Origin: a virus
Taxonomy: Duplodnaviria; Caudoviricetes
Virus record (IMG/VR): IMGVR_UViG_3300036828_000700
Location: 1 to 52,534 of that record
DNA: 52,534 nucleotides
Direction: 5' to 3' (one strand)
Within the stretch, counting starts at the first letter, position 1. The number at the start of each line of letters is the position of its first letter. The position numbers and the translations under genes are program-made. The notes beneath the pieces are model-generated. The model saw only the letters and a program-made list of their open reading frames with translations. It had not been told where the DNA came from and made no database searches. Positions 11,858 through 23,534 of the stretch are shown piece by piece.

Positions 11858-12627
11858 GCGCTCAAACTGTTATCGGGTTTCTCACACGCTACGGCTCGCT
11901 CAGTCTCCATGGGTATCTCGCCTTGGTCGGCTCGCTTCATGATATCGGGTTACTCAACATCCGCGGCTCGCTCATCACGGTCGGGGTTTCTCCGACTTCA
12001 CGGCTCGCTCAGGTGTACCGGGGTGCTCATCTTTGGCGGCTCGCTCGACTGGAGCGGAATCCTCTCTTATCACGGCTCGCTCTGCTGTGTCGGAATTCTC
12101 AATATTGACGGCTCGCTCACTTCATCTGGGTGACTCCATCAAGTCGGCTCGCTCTCTGGGGAATCGGGTGTCTCGTTATTTACGGCTCGCTCTGAGGGGT
12201 CGGGTTACTCGCCAACGGCGGCTCGCTCACGAATTACGGGTGTTCTCTGATCGCGCGGCTCGCTTCCATGCTACGGGTGCCTCTTTGCTTACGGCTCGCT
12301 CTAACAAATCGGGGTGCTCCTCCGTAACGGCTCGCTCATGTATGTCGGGTTCCTCAATACTGGCGGCTCGCTCAGACTACACGGGCATCTCCTTGTTGAC
12401 GGCTCGCTCGCGCCATACGGATGTCTCACAGAATGCGGCTCGCTCAACTACCCTGGGTTTCTCGTGGACAGCGGCTCGCTCCGATGTTTGCGGGTGTCTC
12501 CTCATCCACGGCTCGCTTCTGGATAGTGGGTTTCTCACGCTGGACGGCTCGCTCATTCATCGCGGGTTAACTCAGCGAAGACGGCTCGCTCCACGGAGAC
12601 GGGTGACTCACAAATCTCGGCTCACGC
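11858..12627 (-). ncRNA. TIGR-type dual-repeat guide-RNA array, 21 units of about 36 nt
   Basis: + strand CGGCTCGCTY starts at 11892, 11928, 11964, 12001, 12037, 12073, 12109, 12145, 12183, 12219, 12256, 12292, 12328, 12364, 12400, 12436, 12472, 12509, 12545 and 12582, with partial copies at 12618 and about 11858. These alternate with a second repeat YGGRnnnCTC, and unique spacers of mostly 8 nt lie between them. Confidence 0.88.
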
Positions 12628-13473
12628 CACCTTTATAAGCGTGCTGTGTCCCAGCTTCTCGATCGCATACGGCAGCGGCGGCTCCTTCTTGAACTTCCTC
12701 CGATACGCCTCTGCCCACCACTCCCGCAAAAAGATCTTCGTCGCCCACCGCTGCGCCCGCCGATCAATCCGCCCATCCGGTAACCGGCCCGCCTCGTAAA
12801 TCACCCGCATCTCCTTCTTGAACTTCTTCGCCGCCAGCGTCGCCCTGGCCGTCTCCGCATTCATCCCGCTCAAGTTGCGCTCCACCTCCAGGCGCTTGCG
12901 CTGCTCATACAACTTCCCGAATACACAGTCCTCCCGATTGTGAAACTTCATGAACGAATCCCCCAGCTTGTACGCTATCTGCTTCCCCAACGCACTCCAC
13001 GGCCGCTTCTCCCCCTTCCTCCACACCACCGTCGGATCCAATCCGTAGAACCTCCAGATCTTCGACGGCGTCGTCGCGATATCCATATTGATCGTAGCCA
13101 GTAATCCCGCCGAGATGATCGGTCCTACTCCAACGAACGAACGCGCCCACATCCCCATCCCCGTCGTCTCCTCCCTCGTGTACTGCTCCAGCATCGCAAA
13201 TATCGCCTTCTCCGTATCCCGATCCCTCCCCGCCAACCAACTCAGCAACTGCGCACTCGCCCCAGCCTCCTCCGTCTTCCTCGCCCTGTGTGCACTCGAT
13301 ATCCGAAACTGCTGCTGATCGTAATACGACTCCACCAGATACCTCACGATCGTCAGCCCCCTACTCGGATCCTCTGCCAGTCGAGCTACTGCGGCTTTCG
13401 CATCCGCCCTCAGCAAACTCGCCGTCTCCGGATTCACCATCTCCTCATCTACCACCAATTCCATTCTCGCCAT
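12622..13473 (-). CDS. Tas-like Nop/IS110 C-terminal domain protein without a nuclease domain (TasA-like)
   Basis: WARSFVGVGPIISAGLLATI..TPSKIWRFYGLDP..RKGEK resembles the IS110 C-terminal/Nop fold. The N-terminus is helical (YYDQQQFRI) and no RuvC DEDD or HNH motif is visible. Perfect GGAGGTGATC SD; the array begins at its stop codon. Confidence 0.82.
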   Translation of the reverse strand: MARMELVVDEEMVNPETASLLRADAKAAVARLAEDPSRGLTIVRYLVESYYDQQQFRISSAHRARKTEEAGASAQLLSWLAGRDRDTEKAIFAMLEQYTREETTGMGMWARSFVGVGPIISAGLLATINMDIATTPSKIWRFYGLDPTVVWRKGEKRPWSALGKQIAYKLGDSFMKFHNREDCVFGKLYEQRKRLEVERNLSGMNAETARATLAAKKFKKEMRVIYEAGRLPDGRIDRRAQRWATKIFLREWWAEAYRRKFKKEPPLPYAIEKLGHSTLIKVA

Positions 13474-14053: not shown

Positions 14054-14082
14054 TTGACAGATGATAAGCAGAAGAGCATAGT
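14054..14082 (+). promoter_or_regulatory. early sigma70-type promoter with an operator in its spacer
   Basis: TTGACA (14054-14059), 17 bp spacer, CATAGT; TGATAAGCA at 14062-14070. Confidence 0.6.
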
Positions 14083-14123
14083 TAGATTGTCAATCGAAAC
14101 GTTCCCAAAGAAGAGGAGCGACA

Positions 14124-14864
14124 ATGGTCACAAAGAGCAGGACCACACAGGGCAGAATCAATCGCAATGGATTGGTTCTATGGGAATCCGCGACACAGGT
14201 TGCGATTGCTACGGGATTTAAAAGGCCTTCGGCTAATCGCAAGACTGGCAAAATGATTCAGATCTTTATCATCGTGAAGCAGGTTGATCCTGTTACTGCG
14301 ATACACACAGGGCAGGACGAAGCAGTGTGCTTCTCTTGCAAACTGCGCGGACGAATCAACGAGGAAGGAAAGCTTGTCGAGCGAGCCTGTTACGTTGATT
14401 TGCCAAAGAGCGTGCTGTCAGTCTGGAATTGCTTTCATCGTGGTGGATATCGCAAGCTTGAAGACTACTCTGTGTTTGACGGACGCAACGTCCGCTTTGG
14501 CGCATACGGAGAGCCTGTCCTGCTTCCTCTAGACATGGTTCGCGAGATAGCAGGACGCGCAAGCAAACGCACAGGCTACACCCATCGTTGGAAGGAAGTA
14601 GCGATCCAAGGCTACCGTCATTTCTTTATGGCGTCCTGTGACCAGAGCGATTATCAGGAAGCCGAAGCACTAGGCTGGCGGACGTTTAGCGTGAGCGAGG
14701 AAGCACTAGAGAAGCACGTCCTGTGTCCTGCTTCTGAGGAAGCAGGAAAGCGGACCAATTGCGCTAAGTGTGGCCTGTGCTCTGGCACTAGCCTACAGGC
14801 ACGCTCGATTTGGATTCCTGCCCATGGTCAAGGCAAGAAATACGCTTACAAGGTTGCAGCGTAG
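14124..14864 (+). CDS. conserved Cys-rich phage early protein (Gp88-like/radical-SAM-like, tentative)
   Basis: SANRKTG.MIQ, C..C...CYV, RFGAYGEP, TGYTHRW, MASCD, GWRTF, CPA...C..CGLC motifs. Confidence 0.7.
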   Translation: MVTKSRTTQGRINRNGLVLWESATQVAIATGFKRPSANRKTGKMIQIFIIVKQVDPVTAIHTGQDEAVCFSCKLRGRINEEGKLVERACYVDLPKSVLSVWNCFHRGGYRKLEDYSVFDGRNVRFGAYGEPVLLPLDMVREIAGRASKRTGYTHRWKEVAIQGYRHFFMASCDQSDYQEAEALGWRTFSVSEEALEKHVLCPASEEAGKRTNCAKCGLCSGTSLQARSIWIPAHGQGKKYAYKVAA

Positions 14865-14920
14865 GCTAGCACGGACGATAATCAAACTGACTCAATATTC
14901 CCAAAGACGAGGAAACGATC

Positions 14921-15184
14921 ATGGAAAACATTTGCAACGATTGTCTGCACAACCAGTGTGATGACTGTTACGAATCCGATTGCCAGTGCAATCTTTCCAG
15001 TCATACGCTCGCAGCCGGATTGCTTCTGCGTTTCGCAGCCGAAGCAGTCAATCCCGATCATGACGTTGATATTCAGACTGGCAACGTCACGATTCAATTC
15101 CTGACCAAAGACGGCGCGAATGATCAGGCTGAGTTCAACCTGCTGATCAACGGACGCACCTATCATGTGACGGTGCGAGCATAG
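14921..15184 (+). CDS. hypothetical protein with a Cys-rich N-terminus
   Basis: GAGG SD; C..C...C..C....C.C. Confidence 0.65.
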   Translation: MENICNDCLHNQCDDCYESDCQCNLSSHTLAAGLLLRFAAEAVNPDHDVDIQTGNVTIQFLTKDGANDQAEFNLLINGRTYHVTVRA

Positions 15185-15211
15185 CGTGTATCGCGCGTAC
15201 AGGAGAGCATC

Positions 15212-15442
15212 ATGAAAATCGGCGACAAGGTTGCTTATTCGGTCAAGTGGCTGCGGTCCTGCGGAATCTACACAGGTCCGATACCGTTTGCGCGCGGTGT
15301 AGTCACGGGTATCGCGCGTATGGGGTCACGGTACGACGGCACCACGATCGCGACGGTGGATTGGGGCGACGATGAAATTCCGTCCAAGGTAAACGCCGCG
15401 AATCTGGTCCGCGTGGCTGATTTACACAAGGAACTTTCTTAA
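15212..15442 (+). CDS. SH3-like small protein
   Basis: AGGAG SD; MKIGDKVAY...RGVVTGI...ATVDW. Confidence 0.7.
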   Translation: MKIGDKVAYSVKWLRSCGIYTGPIPFARGVVTGIARMGSRYDGTTIATVDWGDDEIPSKVNAANLVRVADLHKELS

Positions 15443-15471
15443 CGGGAAATTTCCCAAAGACGAGGAACATC

Positions 15472-15744
15472 ATGGACGAAAGACTCAAATCGATTTTGCA
15501 GCGGATGGACTATTTCACGGTCGCTGCTTTGGCAGAACGCATCGAAGCACTAGGCGCGGACGCTGTGAGCGAATTGCGTGCCCTAGCAGAGCAGAAGCAT
15601 CGGCGCGCGATATGGGATGGACGTGCCTACATCCGCCCTGACGTTGCCCTGCAGATGGACGCGATTGTAGCGATTACCAAGGGATTGAATTTCAGCAAAC
15701 GCCGCACGGGCAAAAATGGATCGCGCGTGCGGACAACCAACTAA
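15472..15744 (+). CDS. hypothetical early protein
   Basis: GAGG SD, 90 aa. Confidence 0.65.
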   Translation: MDERLKSILQRMDYFTVAALAERIEALGADAVSELRALAEQKHRRAIWDGRAYIRPDVALQMDAIVAITKGLNFSKRRTGKNGSRVRTTN

Positions 15745-15767
15745 TTTTCCCACAGGAGAGGAAAGCA

Positions 15768-16406
15768 ATGAGCAAGTCACTTTGGCTAGACGAGTTTGGC
15801 AAGGAATACGCGCCCGATGTGGTGGTCGAGGATCTGCTTTCGATTCGTGGCGTGGTTGACGATTCGTGGCATAACGATGTAGCGCCGCACTTCCGCTTTG
15901 AGCGGGATAACGCCGCTGTCGAGCTGTGGTTCTACACTGCGGATCCGAATGACCGCGCAAACGAGGGCGACAGCATCCCACCGGATCAGCCGCGCTATGT
16001 GGTCTACGACATAGCTCCGGACGCGCGCGGGCAACTAGAGGAAATCCCTGACTACGGTGCCGCACAGGTCGCCTATCAGGGCGAGAGTGGGTGCGGGGCG
16101 GTCGCGAAGTTCCTTGAGCTATCGCGCCTGCCACAGGCTGTGGGCGACAAGTTTGCCAAGCTTCTGCGCCGCGAGCTGACCCCTGCGGAATTCTCAGAGA
16201 TGCGCCGCCGCAATCGCGATGCTGGCGATGTCCATGGATTCTGCGCCAGCCACGATTTTTGCGATGCGAATATGCCGATGGCTGAGGCCCTGCTCGTGGT
16301 CACGGGCTGCGAACCTTCCTTTGAGCATGACGCGATAACTGAGCTGTGGAATCAGGCGTGGGATTACGCCAAGCGCGAGCATCTGACCGCACGCAAAGAC
16401 GCCTAA
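15768..16406 (+). CDS. hypothetical early protein (two fused modules: DxSWHND..P and CASHDFCDANM.M)
   Basis: Both motifs are visible in the translation; SD present. Confidence 0.75.
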   Translation: MSKSLWLDEFGKEYAPDVVVEDLLSIRGVVDDSWHNDVAPHFRFERDNAAVELWFYTADPNDRANEGDSIPPDQPRYVVYDIAPDARGQLEEIPDYGAAQVAYQGESGCGAVAKFLELSRLPQAVGDKFAKLLRRELTPAEFSEMRRRNRDAGDVHGFCASHDFCDANMPMAEALLVVTGCEPSFEHDAITELWNQAWDYAKREHLTARKDA

Positions 16407-16460
16407 CTGACGAGGGGCGACACCCCGAAATCCGCGTCTGAGGTGGCGCGGATATTAGGC
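16401..16460 (+). ncRNA. type I hammerhead ribozyme
   Basis: Stem I GCCTAA/TTAGGC; core CTGACGA; stem II GGGG-cgaca-CCCC; GAAA; stem III TCCGCGTC/GGCGCGGA; cleavage triplet ATA at 16452-16454. Confidence 0.88.
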
Positions 16461-16482
16461 TACGAAACCCAAAGACGAGGTT

Positions 16483-17265
16483 ATGACAATGCAACGGAAT
16501 TACTTGGATCGAATCGGTGACCAGATGGATCGCGCGTGCGAGGTTCTAGGAACCCTGGAATTTTCCAGGGCGGATTTACGCTCCGCGATCCTGCGCGTCA
16601 AGAACGCTATGCAGACACCGGAGTATCCGGCGGCGGTGCTGGAAATGGAGCGGATCGAACACCACACCGTGCAGCATGGATTCCTGCCCCCGCGCAACGC
16701 AGACGAGATGTGCGAGGAAATTGCGCGGGAAATCAACGCGATCAACCAGTTCAAGCCTGACATGGTCGCCTATGCTGAGGGGTTCCAAGGCGTGCTGACA
16801 GTCAAGTGTGCGGACGGCGAGAGCTTCACGGTTGGCACCGCCAACGAGACGTGGGCGGCTGACTTCTATCCTTCTGACGATGCTGCGGAATCCGGCGAGT
16901 GCTACGTGGGGTTCGACACTGGAATCGATGGGACGTGTACGGATGCTAATCAAGTTGCGGTCGCGATTGTGTTGAACGTGAAAGACTACATGAGACGTCG
17001 CCCAGTGCGCGGCGAGTTTCTGGAAAGGCTGCGCGATTTCCGCGAGGCGGCGGCTGAGCTTAATGCCGCGTGGGGCAAGCTCGACGCTGAGGACAGCAGC
17101 GCGCTGGTCGATTACTACCCGTTCCAGAATTCGTTCGATGAGATGGTGGGCAAAATCGATGAGTGGGTCACGCAGGCGCGGTCCACGCTGAATGACGAGT
17201 GTCAGGAACATCCGGCGGATGACAACTTCGCGATTGAACCGAAGCAGGCGGTGAAAGGAACCTAG
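16483..17265 (+). CDS. hypothetical acidic early protein
   Basis: 260-aa ORF with SD. Confidence 0.7.
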   Translation: MTMQRNYLDRIGDQMDRACEVLGTLEFSRADLRSAILRVKNAMQTPEYPAAVLEMERIEHHTVQHGFLPPRNADEMCEEIAREINAINQFKPDMVAYAEGFQGVLTVKCADGESFTVGTANETWAADFYPSDDAAESGECYVGFDTGIDGTCTDANQVAVAIVLNVKDYMRRRPVRGEFLERLRDFREAAAELNAAWGKLDAEDSSALVDYYPFQNSFDEMVGKIDEWVTQARSTLNDECQEHPADDNFAIEPKQAVKGT

Positions 17266-17310
17266 CCCTGAAACTGCGGGGTCGCCTGCGGACCCCGCCT
17301 CTATCAAGGC
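17265..17310 (+). repeat. structured intergenic element, copy 1
   Basis: GCCCTGAAACT-GCGGGGTC..GACCCCGC-CTCTATCAAGGC; second copy at 18554-18598. Confidence 0.75.
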
Positions 17311-17342
17311 GATTAGGCCTGAACAACCCAAGGAAGAGGTGA

Positions 17343-17729
17343 GTGACGATGAAAGTTTTCAACCCGCAATGGCAACGTCACATGGACGTTGACGATAAGC
17401 TTGCGACCTATATGAAGGCGCAGGGCTACGAACCCTGTCACACGGGCGGCGGCTGTATGGCGTGGTGGAAGGACGAGGAAGGCTTCTACACCATGATCAC
17501 GTATATCGACGTCGAGCTGGGCGACTGGGCGCACATCGACGATCCGCAGTGGCTGGTTGGGCGCTACGGACGCGACACTGACGGCTGGAATGACGGCTGG
17601 GTCTGCTATGAGGGCGGCGTGAAATTGGAGGTGGCGTTTGAGATTGCGCGCCATCTGCCGGATCCAAAGGCGGGCGAGGAGTGCTACGTCACGGCGGGCG
17701 ACAAGGAACTGGGAGGGCGGCGGCGATGA
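17343..17729 (+). CDS. hypothetical early protein (HTGGGCMA motif)
   Basis: GAGGTG SD, 128 aa. Confidence 0.7.
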   Translation: MTMKVFNPQWQRHMDVDDKLATYMKAQGYEPCHTGGGCMAWWKDEEGFYTMITYIDVELGDWAHIDDPQWLVGRYGRDTDGWNDGWVCYEGGVKLEVAFEIARHLPDPKAGEECYVTAGDKELGGRRR

Positions 17730-18079
17730 ACACATGCCAATGCGGTCATCCAAGGCGCGCTCACGATTTTGACTCAGGCAAATGCACCCACTTGAACCTT
17801 GAGCAGGGCAAGTATTGCGACTGCCGTCTCTATGAGCTTGCGGGTAACGCGCGTGTCCAGGAACCCGCGGCCAACTGGCGCAAGGCCAAGGAAGTGCTGG
17901 TGTGGGCGAAGCACACGCGCAAGTGGGAATTTGCACGGCAGGAATTGCCGCACGCCAACGACATCGCCAGAGGCGACACTCGCGCCTTCTGGGTGCGGCG
18001 CGACTACTCCACCATCTGTCCGGTAGGCGAGGAAATCGCCACGCTGCCCGTGCCGCCGCCGCCCAAGGTCGAGGCCTGA
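17726..18079 (+). CDS. hypothetical protein with an N-terminal C.CGH...H...C...C.C zinc motif
   Basis: ATGA overlap with the upstream gene. Confidence 0.65.
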   Translation: MNTCQCGHPRRAHDFDSGKCTHLNLEQGKYCDCRLYELAGNARVQEPAANWRKAKEVLVWAKHTRKWEFARQELPHANDIARGDTRAFWVRRDYSTICPVGEEIATLPVPPPPKVEA

Positions 18080-18153
18080 ATATCGGCTTGCTTGCGGACG
18101 TCTACTATGTTAATTGATTATCAATCTAACTTTCCCATAGAGGAGGGAAGCAA

Positions 18154-18378
18154 ATGAACCTGACAGTTTGGCCCGTAGAGAAGACCAGTGAATGGGTCCA
18201 GTGCGAAAAGCTGGGTTCGATGACTGGCAAGCGTGTCTGCCACCAGCAGGCGTCCTATGTGGTGGCGGTGCGCGACCCTGAGAAGGAAACGGAACTCAGG
18301 CTCTGCCGCCAGCACGCCAAGTACGCGGTTGATGGCGCGATGGATCTGATCCTGAAAGCCTCGCAGGAGGTTAAGTGA
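18154..18378 (+). CDS. small Cys/His zinc-binding protein
   Basis: GAGGAGG SD; C...C...LCRQH. Confidence 0.65.
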   Translation: MNLTVWPVEKTSEWVQCEKLGSMTGKRVCHQQASYVVAVRDPEKETELRLCRQHAKYAVDGAMDLILKASQEVK

Positions 18379-18379
18379 A

Positions 18380-18553
18380 ATGGACGGATTAGTGATCGAC
18401 AATGACGGACTCGCCAATTGCGACTGCGGAGTGGTGGGTTTTGAGGTGACTTTCGGTGCTGACGGAGCGGTCGAACTGGTGTGCGTATCGTGCGGCAACC
18501 TGTACTCGACTCAGGACGTCGAACGCGCACGCAAGGAAGGACGCAGCAACTAA
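18380..18553 (+). CDS. small zinc-ribbon protein
   Basis: AGGAGG SD; translated by hand MDGLVIDNDGLANCDCG...VCVSCGN...*. Confidence 0.6.
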   Translation: MDGLVIDNDGLANCDCGVVGFEVTFGADGAVELVCVSCGNLYSTQDVERARKEGRSN

Positions 18554-18598
18554 GCCCTGAAACTGCGGGGAGGGAAACCTCCCCGCCTCTATCAAGGC
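18554..18598 (+). repeat. structured intergenic element, copy 2
   Basis: GCCCTGAAACT-GCGGGGAGG-GAAA-CCTCCCCGC-CTCTATCAAGGC. Confidence 0.75.
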
Positions 18599-18629
18599 AA
18601 TTTAACTTTCCCACTGAGGAGGGAAGAAG

Positions 18630-19085
18630 ATGAAAGCTCTCAACTGGTTTGAAGTATCTACCCTAGACGATGGCGTGAACTACGGAACCGCCGCTCAGGC
18701 CGTCGTATTTGCGACGGACTACTGGATGACGCCGGATTGCGTGATCCCGTGCGGATCGCGCGCGCGCGTGAGCTGCAACTCCCTGAACGAACTGTGCTGC
18801 TACTTGGAAGTCACGCTGGACGAGCCGCGCAAGGGCGTCGAGGACGGAATCGTGTTCTTTGGCGGTCACCTGGATCCGGGCGCGGACTGCCACGGTCCTG
18901 CGGAAGAGCGCGAGGATGACGCGAAGGAATGGTTCAAGCCGTCGCCGCTGACGGTCGAGGAGGTCACGCCCTATTACTGCACGGGTTGCGGCCACAGTGT
19001 TAACGAGCCTTGGAGCCTGCATCGCGTCCGTTGCATTGGCGAGTGCCCCCAGACGCTCTACCCGCCGCCGAAGGAGGTCAAGTGA
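18630..19085 (+). CDS. hypothetical early protein
   Basis: GAGGAGG SD, 151 aa. Confidence 0.65.
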   Translation: MKALNWFEVSTLDDGVNYGTAAQAVVFATDYWMTPDCVIPCGSRARVSCNSLNELCCYLEVTLDEPRKGVEDGIVFFGGHLDPGADCHGPAEEREDDAKEWFKPSPLTVEEVTPYYCTGCGHSVNEPWSLHRVRCIGECPQTLYPPPKEVK

Positions 19086-19258
19086 TTATCGAGGTCGTCC
19101 TCTGCGAGGACTGCGGGCAGGATGCGCGGGTGCCTAGGCGTCCGCAGCTCCCTGCGTGCACGATGTGCGGGTCAACGCGCGTGTCGCTCTGCGAACGCGA
19201 GGAAACCCCAGACGAGATTAGCCGCCTGATGAAGGCGCTGAACGAGAGGCGAGGATGA
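19082..19258 (+). CDS. small CxxC-CxxC zinc-ribbon protein
   Basis: AGGAGG SD; GTGA overlap with the upstream gene. Confidence 0.6.
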   Translation: MIIEVVLCEDCGQDARVPRRPQLPACTMCGSTRVSLCEREETPDEISRLMKALNERRG

Positions 19259-19533
19259 TGAGTAAGAAACTGGGACATCCATCGAACCGGCAACGCCGGA
19301 TTACCGGCAGGAGATTCATAGACCGTGCGGAACTTACTTACGAGAACGGGAGGGTGGTCGATTCTCTGGTCGATATGCTGACCGACATCCGGCACTCCTG
19401 CGGCCAGAAACCGGGCATCGACTTCGATAACTGCGTGCGCCTGTCTGAGATGCACTATCAGGACGAAATAAAGGGCAACGAGACGCGCCGCACCAAGGGC
19501 GGCTATGTATCGCGCGTGAGGAAATCGCAATGA
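19255..19533 (+). CDS. hypothetical protein (DMLTDIRH motif)
   Basis: Translationally coupled ORF. Confidence 0.65.
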   Translation: MMSKKLGHPSNRQRRITGRRFIDRAELTYENGRVVDSLVDMLTDIRHSCGQKPGIDFDNCVRLSEMHYQDEIKGNETRRTKGGYVSRVRKSQ

Positions 19534-19721
19534 CCCAGAAAAAAGTGCGGAGCGATATCTTCGACGCGTTTACGGCCGGCTTTAACGCCGCTCGCGCGGT
19601 TCCGTCTGACGTTGACAAGCCGCTGAAGGAATATTTTGAGGACGCCTGGAAGGCGTTCATCGCGGCGACGGGCATTATCGACGAGCCAGCCAAGGAATGG
19701 CCGGACTGGATGACCAAATAG
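19530..19721 (+). CDS. hypothetical protein
   Basis: ATGA-coupled ORF. Confidence 0.6.
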   Translation: MTQKKVRSDIFDAFTAGFNAARAVPSDVDKPLKEYFEDAWKAFIAATGIIDEPAKEWPDWMTK

Positions 19722-19748
19722 CAGACAAACAGGAGTCTCGGAATCACG

Positions 19749-19943
19749 ATGACGACGAGCTACACTCAGGACGATGAGCGCAGAGCGCATATCGAGAATA
19801 TGAACATGGACACCGAATACAAACGTGGGCTTTTGAAGTACGAGCCGTGGAAAGTGGTGGTCACCGCGCTTGGTGCGGGAGCTGCTCTCACAATCGCGAT
19901 CATCGCGTTGCTGACCTTCATGGCGGCGAGGGGTTTCCGATGA
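19749..19943 (+). CDS. small C-terminally anchored membrane protein
   Basis: YEPWKVVVTALGAGAALTIAIIALL hydrophobic helix. Confidence 0.65.
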   Translation: MTTSYTQDDERRAHIENMNMDTEYKRGLLKYEPWKVVVTALGAGAALTIAIIALLTFMAARGFR

Positions 19944-20449: not shown

Positions 20450-20650
20450 GTGGTCGAAATATTGGCGGGAATTATCGTGGTCGCCATCTGTATCGCGGGT
20501 GCTTGGGCGCTGGTCCTGTTCGGAGCGCTGCTGGTTACGTCAGCGCTCGAGTTCATCATCTGGGTCGTCACCGCACCCTGGAATATCTACCGTTGGTGGC
20601 GGAACCGTCAGGCGGAACACGAAGCGCAGACTAGGAGTTTGGACGCCTGA
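20450..20650 (+). CDS. small membrane protein
   Basis: AAGGAG SD; long hydrophobic stretch. Confidence 0.6.
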   Translation: MVEILAGIIVVAICIAGAWALVLFGALLVTSALEFIIWVVTAPWNIYRWWRNRQAEHEAQTRSLDA

Positions 20651-22244
20651 GTTTGATAAGCAATTCCTCGACAGCCTGAATCCGTTCCCCGATCCACGCC
20701 ATCACTGGCACCGCCATCGAGTTTCCCAGAGCGCGATAGCGCGGACCATCTGCCGCCGTCTTTCCGCGATATCTGATCCGCGTGAAGTTATCCGGAAAGC
20801 CCTGGAGGCGTTCGCACTCGAGCGGAGTGAGCCGCCGCACGCGCGCCTGATGCAGAACCTGTCGGCTGTGGGTTCGGCCACCGCTGCCCGGATTGGTCAG
20901 GGCATAGGCGGTGTCTTCCAGAAACTCGAGGTTGCGACCGTCGCTGCGCGTGCGCTCAGTGAAGGTCATTACCGCTGGGTAGCCCTGCCCAGGTTTGCCG
21001 CCGCCACAGGTGAGATTGGCCGTCTCATTCTGGGTGACCTCAGCACGCCGGTTTTCCTTGAACGCTATCGCGTGCTGCTTACCAGCCTGCAGGGTGAACA
21101 TGGGATCGCCTGCGTTGCCGATTCCCAGTCCGTCGCCCAGATCCGGCCTGTCCCGCCGTGCTCCGACTTCCAGGATCGGGATTATCGGCGAACCGCGGCC
21201 GGTACCATCCTCCGTCACATGGTCCGTCTCAGTGGTCAGAGCGTGGGTCACCAGCGGCACCCCTCGACCAGTTCCGTCCTCAGTCACTCCGCGCTGCAGA
21301 TTGGCGAGCGCGTGGGCTACCACGAGCGGAGCGCCTCGACCAGTTCCGTCCTCTGACGCATCGAACCCATCAGCTCGCAATGTGTGGGCTACCACTGTGC
21401 TGGAGCTGCGCTCCGGATACGCACCCTTGTAGTCGCGGGCGCTGATGCTCATGGCGATTTCCGGAATGAAATCGATCCTGTCAGGGTCGTTGCACTTGCT
21501 CTCCTGGCGCGGTCGCACCGCGTGGCTCAGGACGGAGTTGTGCATCCGGAAGGTGTTACCTTCGTGCGACCAAGTTCGTCCCTCGTTGGCAGTGACAGGA
21601 TCCGCCACGAAGCTCATTCGATCGGTGTCTGAGCACCAGCCACGAACCCCAGAGCCGCCCCCAAGTGTTCCGGCAGGGTCTTCCCGCGCCGGTCGGCTCG
21701 GCGCAGGATTCCAGCGCAGGCTCGAGCGCTCAAATAGTACTGCGGCGGCAGCTCGCCAGTCTCCAAGATATCCGACAATGAAGACGCGACGGCGGCGCTG
21801 TGGAATTCCGAAGAACTGAGCGTCAAAAATTCGGTAGGCGAACCCATACCCGAGTTCTGCCAGTCGAGTGAGGATGAGTCCGAAAACGCGTCCTTCGTCA
21901 AGCGAGAAGACGCCGGGAACATTCTCCCAGACCAGCCAGCGGAAGCGTGCTCGTTCAACAAACGCAAGCCATTCAAGGGTGAGGTTACCACGAGCTCCAT
22001 CCAGTCCAGCTCTGAGTCCTGCGACGGAAAAGTCTTGGCACGGGGTTCCCGCCACGAGAAGGTCTGCTGCTGGGGGGAAAGGGATTCGGGTGAAGTCTCC
22101 ATGGTTGTGTACTCCAGGCCAGTAGTGTTTGAGCAGGGTGCGACAGAACGGCTCGATCTCAGCGAAGCCCACCGGATTCCAGCCCAGCGGTTCCCACGCC
22201 ATGCTGGCGGCCTCGATGCCGGAACAGATGCTCAGGTAGTTCAT
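20631..22244 (-). CDS. DNA (cytosine-5) methyltransferase
   Basis: Motif I SICSGIEA, catalytic GTPCQ, ENV, QRRRRVF, motif IX RRLTPLECERLQGFPD and motif X RYRALGNS. Confidence 0.95.
   Translation of the reverse strand: MNYLSICSGIEAASMAWEPLGWNPVGFAEIEPFCRTLLKHYWPGVHNHGDFTRIPFPPAADLLVAGTPCQDFSVAGLRAGLDGARGNLTLEWLAFVERARFRWLVWENVPGVFSLDEGRVFGLILTRLAELGYGFAYRIFDAQFFGIPQRRRRVFIVGYLGDWRAAAAVLFERSSLRWNPAPSRPAREDPAGTLGGGSGVRGWCSDTDRMSFVADPVTANEGRTWSHEGNTFRMHNSVLSHAVRPRQESKCNDPDRIDFIPEIAMSISARDYKGAYPERSSSTVVAHTLRADGFDASEDGTGRGAPLVVAHALANLQRGVTEDGTGRGVPLVTHALTTETDHVTEDGTGRGSPIIPILEVGARRDRPDLGDGLGIGNAGDPMFTLQAGKQHAIAFKENRRAEVTQNETANLTCGGGKPGQGYPAVMTFTERTRSDGRNLEFLEDTAYALTNPGSGGRTHSRQVLHQARVRRLTPLECERLQGFPDNFTRIRYRGKTAADGPRYRALGNSMAVPVMAWIGERIQAVEELLIKLRRPNS
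21614..22102 (-). CDS. overprinted alternative-frame ORF inside the C5 MTase gene
   Basis: 162-aa ATG ORF in another frame ending SSLSDILETG..YYLSARACAGILRRA..RGK.LP. Confidence 0.5.
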   Translation of the reverse strand: METSPESLSPQQQTFSWREPRAKTFPSQDSELDWMELVVTSPLNGLRLLNEHASAGWSGRMFPASSRLTKDAFSDSSSLDWQNSGMGSPTEFLTLSSSEFHSAAVASSLSDILETGELPPQYYLSARACAGILRRADRRGKTLPEHLGAALGFVAGAQTPIE

Positions 22245-22654
22245 AGAGTGTGAGTATTGGCAGCAGCTACAAAGTCCTCGTATTTGACCAGTCGCAATTC
22301 GCTATGGCAGCTAATTGCTTCCGCTAGGTCCGTCACGAATACATCGCGCAGGGTCCATGCTTGATCCGGCCCACCGAGCACCAAGTAGGCCTTTGAGATA
22401 CACGATCGGTGGAGCAACATATTGAGTCGCACCGCGTCATAAACGATCTTTTGTTCTGCAGTTCCCGGGTGCTGTTGCCATTTGAGGGATATCACGCAGC
22501 GCAGCTCAGGCATCCAGAGATCGGCGCGATACATCGCCCCAAGGACTGGCGCAATTGGTCGTTCACGCTCGCACAAATACCCGCGGGTGCGGAGCATTTC
22601 CTTGATATCATCGCGAAACAGATTGCCGGTGTTAGTGTTCAACGGCATCGTCAT
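22241..22654 (-). CDS. PD-(D/E)XK family nuclease
   Basis: YRADL...ISLKWQQHPGTAEQK. The likely start is 22654 or 22648 after AAGGTG; the ORF track extends it to 22774. Confidence 0.7.
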   Translation of the reverse strand: MTMPLNTNTGNLFRDDIKEMLRTRGYLCERERPIAPVLGAMYRADLWMPELRCVISLKWQQHPGTAEQKIVYDAVRLNMLLHRSCISKAYLVLGGPDQAWTLRDVFVTDLAEAISCHSELRLVKYEDFVAAANTHTL

Positions 22655-23534
22655 CTTCACCTTGAAACAACCAGTCGAAAGCAGGCATGAAAATGCTCCC
22701 CACTGGCCCGAAATGCTGGGCAAAGCTGTGCCCGCGCGGCCCGAGATAGAAAGCCGCCGAAGGAAATGGCGCACTATTTTCGGAGTCAGAGAATTTCAAC
22801 CGGCCATCGAAGAAACAGACGGGGGCATTGGTTGGATAAAAGCGCCGGAACCAGTGAGTATCGGTGCGCGACGGAACCAGAGCGATCGCTTCCGTAACCC
22901 CGTCTTCACTCAGCAGCTTTTCCACCCACGAATCGATGACGTCGCCGTAGGGTGGATTCATATAAACCCGCCCGCTCCAGGTCTGCGCTAGCCCATCGTC
23001 CTCGATCGTGAAGTGGCGCTTGGCGGGAACCGCCTTCGCGTGTTCAGCGCAGGGATCGAGATCAATGCCGCGCATCACTGCAGAAACCCGCACAATGATG
23101 TCAGGCGGGGTGAGCCACTGATCGGTCTTGCTGCTGAAGGCTGTTCGCAGAAATCCGTTGCCGTGATCTGCGATCGTCCTTTCAAATTTCTCTTCGGGAA
23201 TGGCGGCCAGCTTCTGCCACTTGGATGATTCGCTGCGGGTAACGCCCAGGTCGTTTAATGTCGTCGCCCGCGACATTACTTTCGGTTGTCCCTTGTCCGC
23301 CCGTTCGCCGCGTTCTTTCATTTCCGCCAGCAGTCGTCCTGCGCCGCGCTCCGCCCGCAACCGGATTTCAGCGCACCAATCGGCCATCTCGTGATCCTTC
23401 GCCTGCCTAGCGTATGCCTCGAGCGCCACGGCTTTGTCGCGGATGTCCTTAATCTCATCGACACTGTGCGCCTCAGCCAAAGCGCGGCGGGCGGCATCGT
23501 ACTTGATCAGTTCCAGTTTGGCCGTCGTTTTCAT
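22632..23534 (-). CDS. phage DNA N6-adenine methyltransferase with an N-terminal helical domain
   Basis: DQWLTP, DLDPCA, DGLAQTW, catalytic MNPPYG, VPSRTDT, GRLKF and APFPS motifs. Confidence 0.9.
   Translation of the reverse strand: MKTTAKLELIKYDAARRALAEAHSVDEIKDIRDKAVALEAYARQAKDHEMADWCAEIRLRAERGAGRLLAEMKERGERADKGQPKVMSRATTLNDLGVTRSESSKWQKLAAIPEEKFERTIADHGNGFLRTAFSSKTDQWLTPPDIIVRVSAVMRGIDLDPCAEHAKAVPAKRHFTIEDDGLAQTWSGRVYMNPPYGDVIDSWVEKLLSEDGVTEAIALVPSRTDTHWFRRFYPTNAPVCFFDGRLKFSDSENSAPFPSAAFYLGPRGHSFAQHFGPVGSIFMPAFDWLFQGEDDDAVEH

Follow-up and report, generated by a model that had tools for sequence, protein, structure and literature searches.

Which RNA element occupies the gap between two neighbouring genes at positions 16401-16460 of the viral record IMGVR_UViG_3300036828_000700 (IMG/VR; Duplodnaviria, Caudoviricetes), and what might it do to their common transcript? 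The whole 52,534 nucleotides of this record were analyzed and are referred to here as the window. The element is very probably a genuine type I hammerhead ribozyme lying between two co-directional genes, and its sequence suggests that it would most likely cut their polycistronic mRNA after A16454. It is a fresh example of the intercistronic hammerheads of phages and prophages reported by Perreault 2011, and so represents a known phage habit rather than a new kind of element.

Every conserved base of the hammerhead core is present at 16401-16460 on the + strand, together with three helices of 6, 4 and 9 bp. The 5' strand of stem I (GCCUAA, 16401-16406) pairs with its 3' strand (UUAGGC, 16455-16460) and contains the end of the upstream gene (15768-16406, +), whose final codons GCC TAA are stem I positions 1-6, the stop itself (16404-16406) being positions 4-6. 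There follow the catalytic core strand C3-A9 (CUGACGA, 16407-16413), a stem II hairpin of four G-C pairs (16414-16417 with 16423-16426) with a 5-nt loop (16418-16422), the core residues G12 A13 A14 (GAA, 16427-16429) and a stem III hairpin of 9 bp counted from A15.1-U16.1 (16430-16438 with 16445-16453) with a 6-nt loop (16439-16444). Read against the hammerhead consensus, C3 U4 G5 A6 N7 G8 A9, G12 A13 A14, A15.1-U16.1 and an H17 other than G are all in place, and the base of helix II is the G10.1-C11.1 pair, formed by G16414 with C16426. Since the geometry of hammerheads is established, the scissile bond is predicted at 16454..16455, after A16454, which is H17 of an AUA triplet.

Folding of 16395-16466 gave precisely this three-way junction as the minimum free energy (MFE) structure (-28.8 kcal/mol, z = -3.55), with one of 200 shuffles as stable, and the junction was retained as a self-contained module when 180 nt were folded. 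It was also recovered by a descriptor demanding the core, G10.1-C11.1, A15.1-U16.1, H17 and uninterrupted stems, which gave one match on the + strand of the window and none on the - strand. With stems of at least 4, 3 and 3 bp no match was obtained when the whole window, both strands included, was shuffled 400 times with dinucleotides preserved; with stems relaxed to at least 3, 2 and 2 bp seven matches appeared in the same shuffles, the best with 9 bp in total versus 19 bp in the real element. Searches for type II and type III hammerheads found none in the window and, taken with the descriptor and the covariance model described below, indicate one hammerhead only in the 52.5 kb. These results bear out the preliminary description of this DNA, in which a complete type I hammerhead with a G-C pair closing stem II had been read at these positions, with the TAA stop of the upstream gene inside stem I.

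A scan with hammerhead models, the check put forward in the preliminary description, gave an answer that depended on the model, negative at threshold for the curated family and positive for a model made from phage copies. Rfam reported nothing in the window at gathering thresholds, and a whole-window scan at E <= 1, too insensitive to show even the element, was likewise empty. A sensitive Rfam scan of 16340-16520 returned RF00163 as the best family with 18.7 bits (E = 0.035) against a threshold of 34. This score lies under threshold because the copies underlying the model have a very short helix III, where the element has 9 bp, and the cmscan alignment forces a false 4-bp helix III instead of the real one. 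A second model, R1, was built from a two-sequence alignment of other viral type I hammerheads, L059 and L087 only; a MAFFT alignment of ten hammerheads was dropped as it was not structure-aware. R1 scored the element at 49.5 bits (E ~3e-13), its sole match in the window at E <= 10. An R1 match at L014:4867-4917 (17 bits, E = 0.055) lacks the CUGANGA core and was judged a false positive.

Four related viral records were reached through the capsid protein, at 97, 96, 95 and 74% identity. R1 found a hammerhead in one of them, G001, whose capsid protein is 97% identical to that of the window (19109-19167, the same as L190:942-1000; 40.4 bits). The silence of the other three records says little because they are fragments, 28-53% complete. 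A pattern in which only the core and the inner stem III were fixed matched eight viral loci, three of them with full hammerheads, namely G001, L191 and L193. The copy at L193:5881-5939 is a third member of the same lineage, and the L191 hammerhead is a different one. The pairs of the three homologous copies were tabulated by parsing each copy, a MAFFT alignment having put a gap inside stem III. CUGACGA, GAA, A15.1-U16.1 and A17 were invariant, and all 11 fixed core bases are kept in these three diverged copies with changed loops and stems. Across the window, G001 and L193, pair 5 of stem I is A-U, G-C and A-U, pair 10.2 of stem II is G-C, C-G and C-G, and in stem III pair 15.7 is G-C, C-G and C-G and pair 15.9 is C-G, A-U and G-C; loops II and III vary freely. 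The change in stem I turns TAA into TGA, with both the pairing and the stop codon kept. The interpretation of the element is strengthened by these compensatory changes in two homologues, by the R1 score and by the positional rule described below. At 10.1/11.1, where G-C is nearly universal, the G001 and L193 copies have U opposite U, and they carry three further stem II pairs; the window has the canonical G-C.

The three homologous modules also have in common a ACCCAAAG box in the downstream leader, at 16467-16474 (+) in the window and 6-9 nt past stem I. It lies at about 1010-1017 in L190 and about 5949-5956 in L193, and is kept though the downstream gene of the window differs from the other two. 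No pairing partner was found for the box, and a loose pattern of core, GAAA and ACCCAAAG box gave, among the 115 matches listed, one weak chance match and no further member of the lineage.

The half-motif made up of the core and the window's stem II was searched in viral loci and in 596 Gb of prokaryote genomes. It is completed to a hammerhead in 45 of 51 viral loci, 33 of type I and 12 of type III, and of the 79 prokaryote-genome loci 55 have no completing helices, with most others having only 3-bp stems. A stem I of at least 5 bp together with a stem III of at least 4 bp is found in 44/51 viral loci versus 6/79 prokaryote-genome loci. The half-motif of L107, L111, L113, L119, L128, L129, L134, L136, L137, L153 and others stands within an apparent conserved stretch in many bacterial metagenome-assembled genomes (MAGs), with one and the same sequence around it each time. 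The MAG half-motifs without completing helices are not ribozymes and show the pattern arising without one. The class alignment, fitted to the model, comprises 43 matches in 35 distinct rows, and its counts are not corrected for relatedness. In the 35 rows 97.2% of cells pair versus 67.2% when shuffled, and 13 of 15 pairs show changes on both sides; the covariation score was 0.55, and shifting the 3' partners by 1-3 columns brought all scores to at most 0.09.

The layout of the element (6-bp stem I, 4-bp stem II and 5-nt loop II) is the commonest, occurring in 32 of 70 distinct copies among the matches listed. In the 61 copies with a 6-bp stem I, again among the matches listed, the last base of loop II and base 1.7 are U/A in 48, A/U in eight and otherwise in five, a covariation with a Fisher p of 5e-9, not corrected for relatedness. 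The window belongs to the A/U group, in which A16422 has as its candidate Hoogsteen partner U16461 at position 1.7, the first unpaired base past the 6-bp stem I. The A/U form is spread over five or more distinct lineages, on a reading of the listed rows (loci L052-L102, L190, L193 and L312-L426). Hammerheads need a tertiary contact of loop II with the region past helix I to be fast at low Mg2+. Chi et al. describe a conserved Hoogsteen contact in which the A that ends the stem II loop pairs with a U beside residue 1.6 (PMC2553840). In the 48 U/A copies the two bases are exchanged relative to the A-U contact known from sTRSV and Schistosoma. A pseudoknot between loop II and the flanks was looked for by eye and none was convincing. 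The AUA triplet is present in active natural hammerheads, and during transcription it was the second of four triplets tested in one natural hammerhead (PMC1636495). Together, the layout, the candidate contact and the triplet point to a ribozyme that is probably tertiary-stabilised and active.

The placement of such hammerheads relative to genes follows a rule. Placement was assessed as an open reading frame (ORF) of at least 40 aa ending from -12 to +19 nt of stem I and an ATG-initiated ORF starting 0-44 nt after it, with 3600 random same-strand positions as the control. Both flank 66 of 72 distinct hammerheads (pooled, among the matches listed) versus 3.8% of random positions, and in a subset chosen regardless of stem I both are found in 24 of 30 versus 2.2%. 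Several contigs among the matches listed have 2-4 copies between successive genes. Such copies lie at 1363-1414, 2109-2161 and 3038-3089 of L059, with four copies in L354, three in L333 and two each in L097, L098, L101, L312, L319, L338, L383, L419 and L423, on one strand and between small ORFs; this multi-copy same-strand layout in other viral contigs is the arrangement described for prophages in 2011.

The position of the stop codon itself raises a further reading, in which a terminating ribosome would cover stem I and the core so that the RNA would be cut only when the upstream gene is untranslated, and cleavage would report, or be set by, upstream translation instead of being constitutive. 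In each of the three homologues the stop of the upstream ORF occupies stem I positions 4-6, and the A-to-G change keeps both stop and pair. A stem I pattern found a type I hammerhead in at least 36 loci among the 115 matches listed, and in 17 of the 19 distinct copies with this same stem I, also among the matches listed, an ORF of at least 40 aa ends exactly at the stem I stop. In the subset chosen regardless of stem I an ORF end falls within -12 to +19 nt in 28 of 30 versus 10% at random. However, tight packing into a short gap of a compact genome would fit these observations equally well, and many hammerheads begin 2-9 nt past the stop instead of overlapping it. Cutting by natural hammerheads is moreover believed to take place while transcription is under way (PMC1636495), perhaps ahead of the first ribosome. 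Gating by translation is on balance unlikely, and the preferred reading is still that of a hammerhead which would cut between the two genes.

The upstream gene (15768..16406, +) encodes a product of 212 aa that matches phrog_21393, a family of unknown function, over residues 123-203 (E = 7e-14); it has no Pfam match, and its matches in the Atlas are hypothetical viral proteins only. The downstream gene (16489..17265, +) encodes 258 aa if it starts at ATG 16489, as is probable. Its longest ORF begins at ATG 16483, and 16489 is the likelier start because two of the four relatives begin MQRNY as from 16489 (the other two begin MTQPNYLDRIG) and because a Shine-Dalgarno (SD)-like GAGG (16477..16480, +) stands 8 nt ahead of it. 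The downstream product has no PHROG or Pfam match and no usable Atlas match, and no relative of it was found in viral contigs; in metagenome contigs the family gave one weak locus, L103, covering residues 101-137 only and without a hammerhead, which was rejected. Both genes are on the + strand, like the ribozyme, and 82 nt separate the upstream stop from ATG 16489. Folding of the leader 16455-16560 is no more stable than that of shuffled sequence (z = +1.23). The GAGG begins 22 nt past the predicted cut, in keeping with the 'about 20 nt' given in the preliminary description, whose label of 'early' for the flanking genes is not supported, as these have no functional match in PHROGs, Pfam or the Atlas. 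The role it had suggested, cutting of a polycistronic phage mRNA between cistrons, is a hypothesis already published for prophage hammerheads and is supported here.

The element is not tied to the upstream gene, as a hammerhead occurs in two of 50 viral loci encoding relatives of the upstream protein, and at another position. The two loci, L005 and L006, have one identical sequence; their hammerhead differs from that of the window and lies approximately 500 nt upstream of the gene. The window and G001 are collinear over the packaging and head genes (65-83% DNA identity over approximately 8 kb), yet for the accessory block 14100-19750 none of the four related records gave a DNA match at E <= 0.001. 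The proteins upstream of the window and G001 hammerheads are unrelated (best E 0.42), and the downstream ones belong to different clusters. The two accessory blocks share one small gene (window 14921-15184), which precedes the hammerhead in the window and follows it in G001. Similarly, a group of 11 similar hammerheads is flanked by eight upstream and six downstream protein clusters in 10 combinations. The ribozyme is thus an independent module that belongs to neither of its flanking genes.

The same observations, together with the contigs holding 2-4 copies, could be explained by a mobile intercistronic cassette, in which a module of approximately 75 nt (stem I stop, ribozyme and ACCCAAAG leader) would be a repeated linker, serving in evolution chiefly as a patch of DNA homology for the exchange of accessory genes between phages, and cleavage would keep newly joined genes expressible. 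However, the invariant catalytic core and covarying stems point to selection at the RNA level, not to DNA homology, and 60 nt at approximately 75% identity would be a poor substrate for homologous recombination. The differing flanks may also be just those of different paralogous copies within genomes. This explanation is distinctly unlikely. A bolder proposal, which we offer tentatively and with more doubt than confidence, is that of a portable 'gene joint', a cassette of approximately 75 nt combining the upstream gene's stop in stem I, a self-cut and a standard short downstream leader. Such a joint would be exchanged among phages so that accessory genes could be swapped and yet stay independently expressed, with cutting perhaps also gated by terminating ribosomes.

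Returning to the hammerhead as an intercistronic cutting element, its action might proceed as follows. The ribozyme would be transcribed within the polycistronic mRNA, stems II and III would fold first as local hairpins, and stem I would close once its 3' strand emerges; from established hammerhead chemistry we infer that the RNA would then cut itself after A16454. The upstream product would keep its stop codon, so that ribosomes could still terminate, and would end in two stable hairpins (stems II and III) and a 2',3'-cyclic phosphate. The downstream product would start with a 5'-OH at U16455 and a poorly structured leader of approximately 34 nt that includes the SD and the 16489 start codon. 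Cleavage would thereby split the operon transcript into two molecules whose decay and translation are mutually independent. The effect of a 5'-OH on the stability of a downstream RNA depends on the RNases of the host (RNase E, RNase J).

Several points weigh against this interpretation. The curated RF00163 model stays below threshold (18.7 vs 34 bits), and part of the R1 score is built in: since a pattern of the window's core and stem II served to retrieve both training sequences, what the core and stem II contribute follows by construction, while stems I and III and the cleavage site are free of this. Likewise, the covariation seen in the class, both in the alignment and between loop II and base 1.7, is uncorrected for relatedness, and the alignment is model-fitted. 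The AUA triplet was the slowest of the four tested with purified RNA in one natural hammerhead (PMC1636495). The U-U at 10.1/11.1 in the two homologues suggests that this sub-lineage may be weaker, and that conservation of the module could partly reflect something besides catalysis. The window has a single copy, where many prophage examples are grouped around genes, and the occurrence of a hammerhead in only two of 50 loci with upstream-protein relatives belongs with these points, since the element is not tied to that gene.

Another reading is that the element would be an inactive relic or a structural element, hammerhead in shape but uncut at cellular Mg2+, acting as a pair of hairpins (for example as a barrier to 3' exonucleases) or having no role. 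Inactive hammerhead-like RNAs are listed by Perreault 2011, one of them from a Xanthomonas phage (PMC3088659), and the homologues do carry the non-canonical 10.1/11.1. The inactive examples named there depart from the consensus, however, and the core of the window copy matches it throughout. Three copies that have diverged in loops and stems retain the 11 fixed core bases, A15.1-U16.1 and A17, and the candidate tertiary pair A16422/U16461 is present, making this explanation highly improbable. A chance resemblance in a GC-rich intergenic hairpin region, for which the 55 of 79 prokaryote-genome half-motifs without any completing helix might be adduced, is practically negligible and is refuted as far as computation can do so, by the 400 shuffles of which none reaches 4/3/3 bp, by the 49.5 bits of R1 and by the compensatory changes in the homologues.

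The record is a complete viral genome with direct terminal repeats and approximately 58% G+C. Genes were found for a portal, a large terminase, a major head protein, a lytic tail protein, a polymerase/primase, a RecT-like protein, an integrase and two DNA methyltransferases, and this gene set indicates a temperate tailed phage. It is a soil phage, and the ribozyme lies within its accessory gene block. A look at sequencing runs turned up a single DNA run from a soil metagenome, from which the record may come, and no RNA run. No match to cultured phages was found for the capsid protein or for the DNA of 15400-17400, and a tRNA scan of the window found none. The ribozyme stands inside a + strand block of small genes (approximately 14124-19721), flanked on both sides by blocks of - strand genes. 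Ahead of this block is a sigma-70-like promoter candidate (14054..14082, +; TTGACA-17-CATAGT, 10/12 matches), which stays a candidate only, given three such sites in the region versus a shuffle mean of 3.4. A transposase-like gene (12622-13473, -; phrog_4285, E = 3e-33) adjoins the variable accessory block with the ribozyme. The DNA methyltransferase genes, at 20631-22244 (-) and 22632-23534 (-), also adjoin the block, and the first of them matches a primase family as well, over residues 14-310.

Hammerheads between phage genes have been known since 2011, their purpose being still unproven, and the present copy is a clean canonical example overlooked by a standard Rfam scan. Three regularities emerge around it: placement between a gene end and a gene start, often with the stop within stem I; the capacity of one module to join unrelated genes in closely related phages; and the covariation of the last base of loop II with base 1.7 as U/A or A/U. 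In the literature searched, the stop-in-stem I rule, the U/A form of the loop II-1.7 contact and the joining of unrelated genes by the same module were not found, although the supplements of PMC3088659, which lie outside that scope, may show the first two. If confirmed, these regularities would let a ribozyme whose role has been obscure be defined as a unit of intercistronic processing, and they would suggest better covariance models for the annotation of phage genomes.

Among known systems the element is closest to the prophage hammerheads, which flank genes, cleave in vitro and in E. coli (three prophage arrangements) and were proposed to cut long phage transcripts down to mRNAs of operon or gene length (PMC3088659); the same intercistronic cutting role is proposed in PMC6765202. 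The examples of Perreault 2011 include a triple arrangement around ardA in Agrobacterium tumefaciens and intergenic copies in phages PaP3 and Bcep176 (PMC3088659). The element shares with that set its location in phage DNA and in an intergenic gap, the strand of its flanking genes, the consensus core and the proposed role, and differs from many of its members in being a single copy instead of one of several flanking a gene, and in having flanking genes without assigned function. A helix I of 6 bp and a helix II of 4 bp are also those of sTRSV (+) (PMC1636495), in which the final A of loop II and the U next to 1.6 form a Hoogsteen pair in the crystal (PMC2553840), the structural reference for the contact; at these places the window has A16422 and U16461, the candidate partners. 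sTRSV is however of type III, with helix III open, and lies in a circular satellite RNA, where it cuts replication multimers, and it has a GNRA tetraloop, whereas the element has helix I open and a loop II of five bases.

The hammerheads of intergenic untranslated regions (UTRs) in RNA mycoviruses resemble the element in being of type I with a long helix III, in lying in a short gap and in cutting a few nt before the next start, and a role in translation of the downstream ORF has been proposed for them (PMC13725137). They differ in belonging to eukaryotic RNA viruses, in often having a very short helix II, in being without the usual loop contacts and in relying on cap-independent rather than SD-led initiation. 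The same paper notes the longer helix III of phage and bacterial type I copies, and takes long-helix III type I hammerheads in phage DNA to be known already (PMC13725137). The best Rfam match, RF00163 (Hammerhead_1), has the same topology, with stem I open, and the same core, but expects the very short helix III of repeat-borne eukaryotic copies, where the element has 9 bp and a 6-nt loop. As an analogy for the module, RiboJ is a man-made hammerhead placed before a ribosome-binding site (RBS), by which the downstream leader becomes the same whatever lies upstream. A further analogy is offered by the PeSL cassettes of T4-type phages, repeated intergenic regulatory units of promoter and stem-loop that carry no ribozyme and at which small accessory genes are shuffled.

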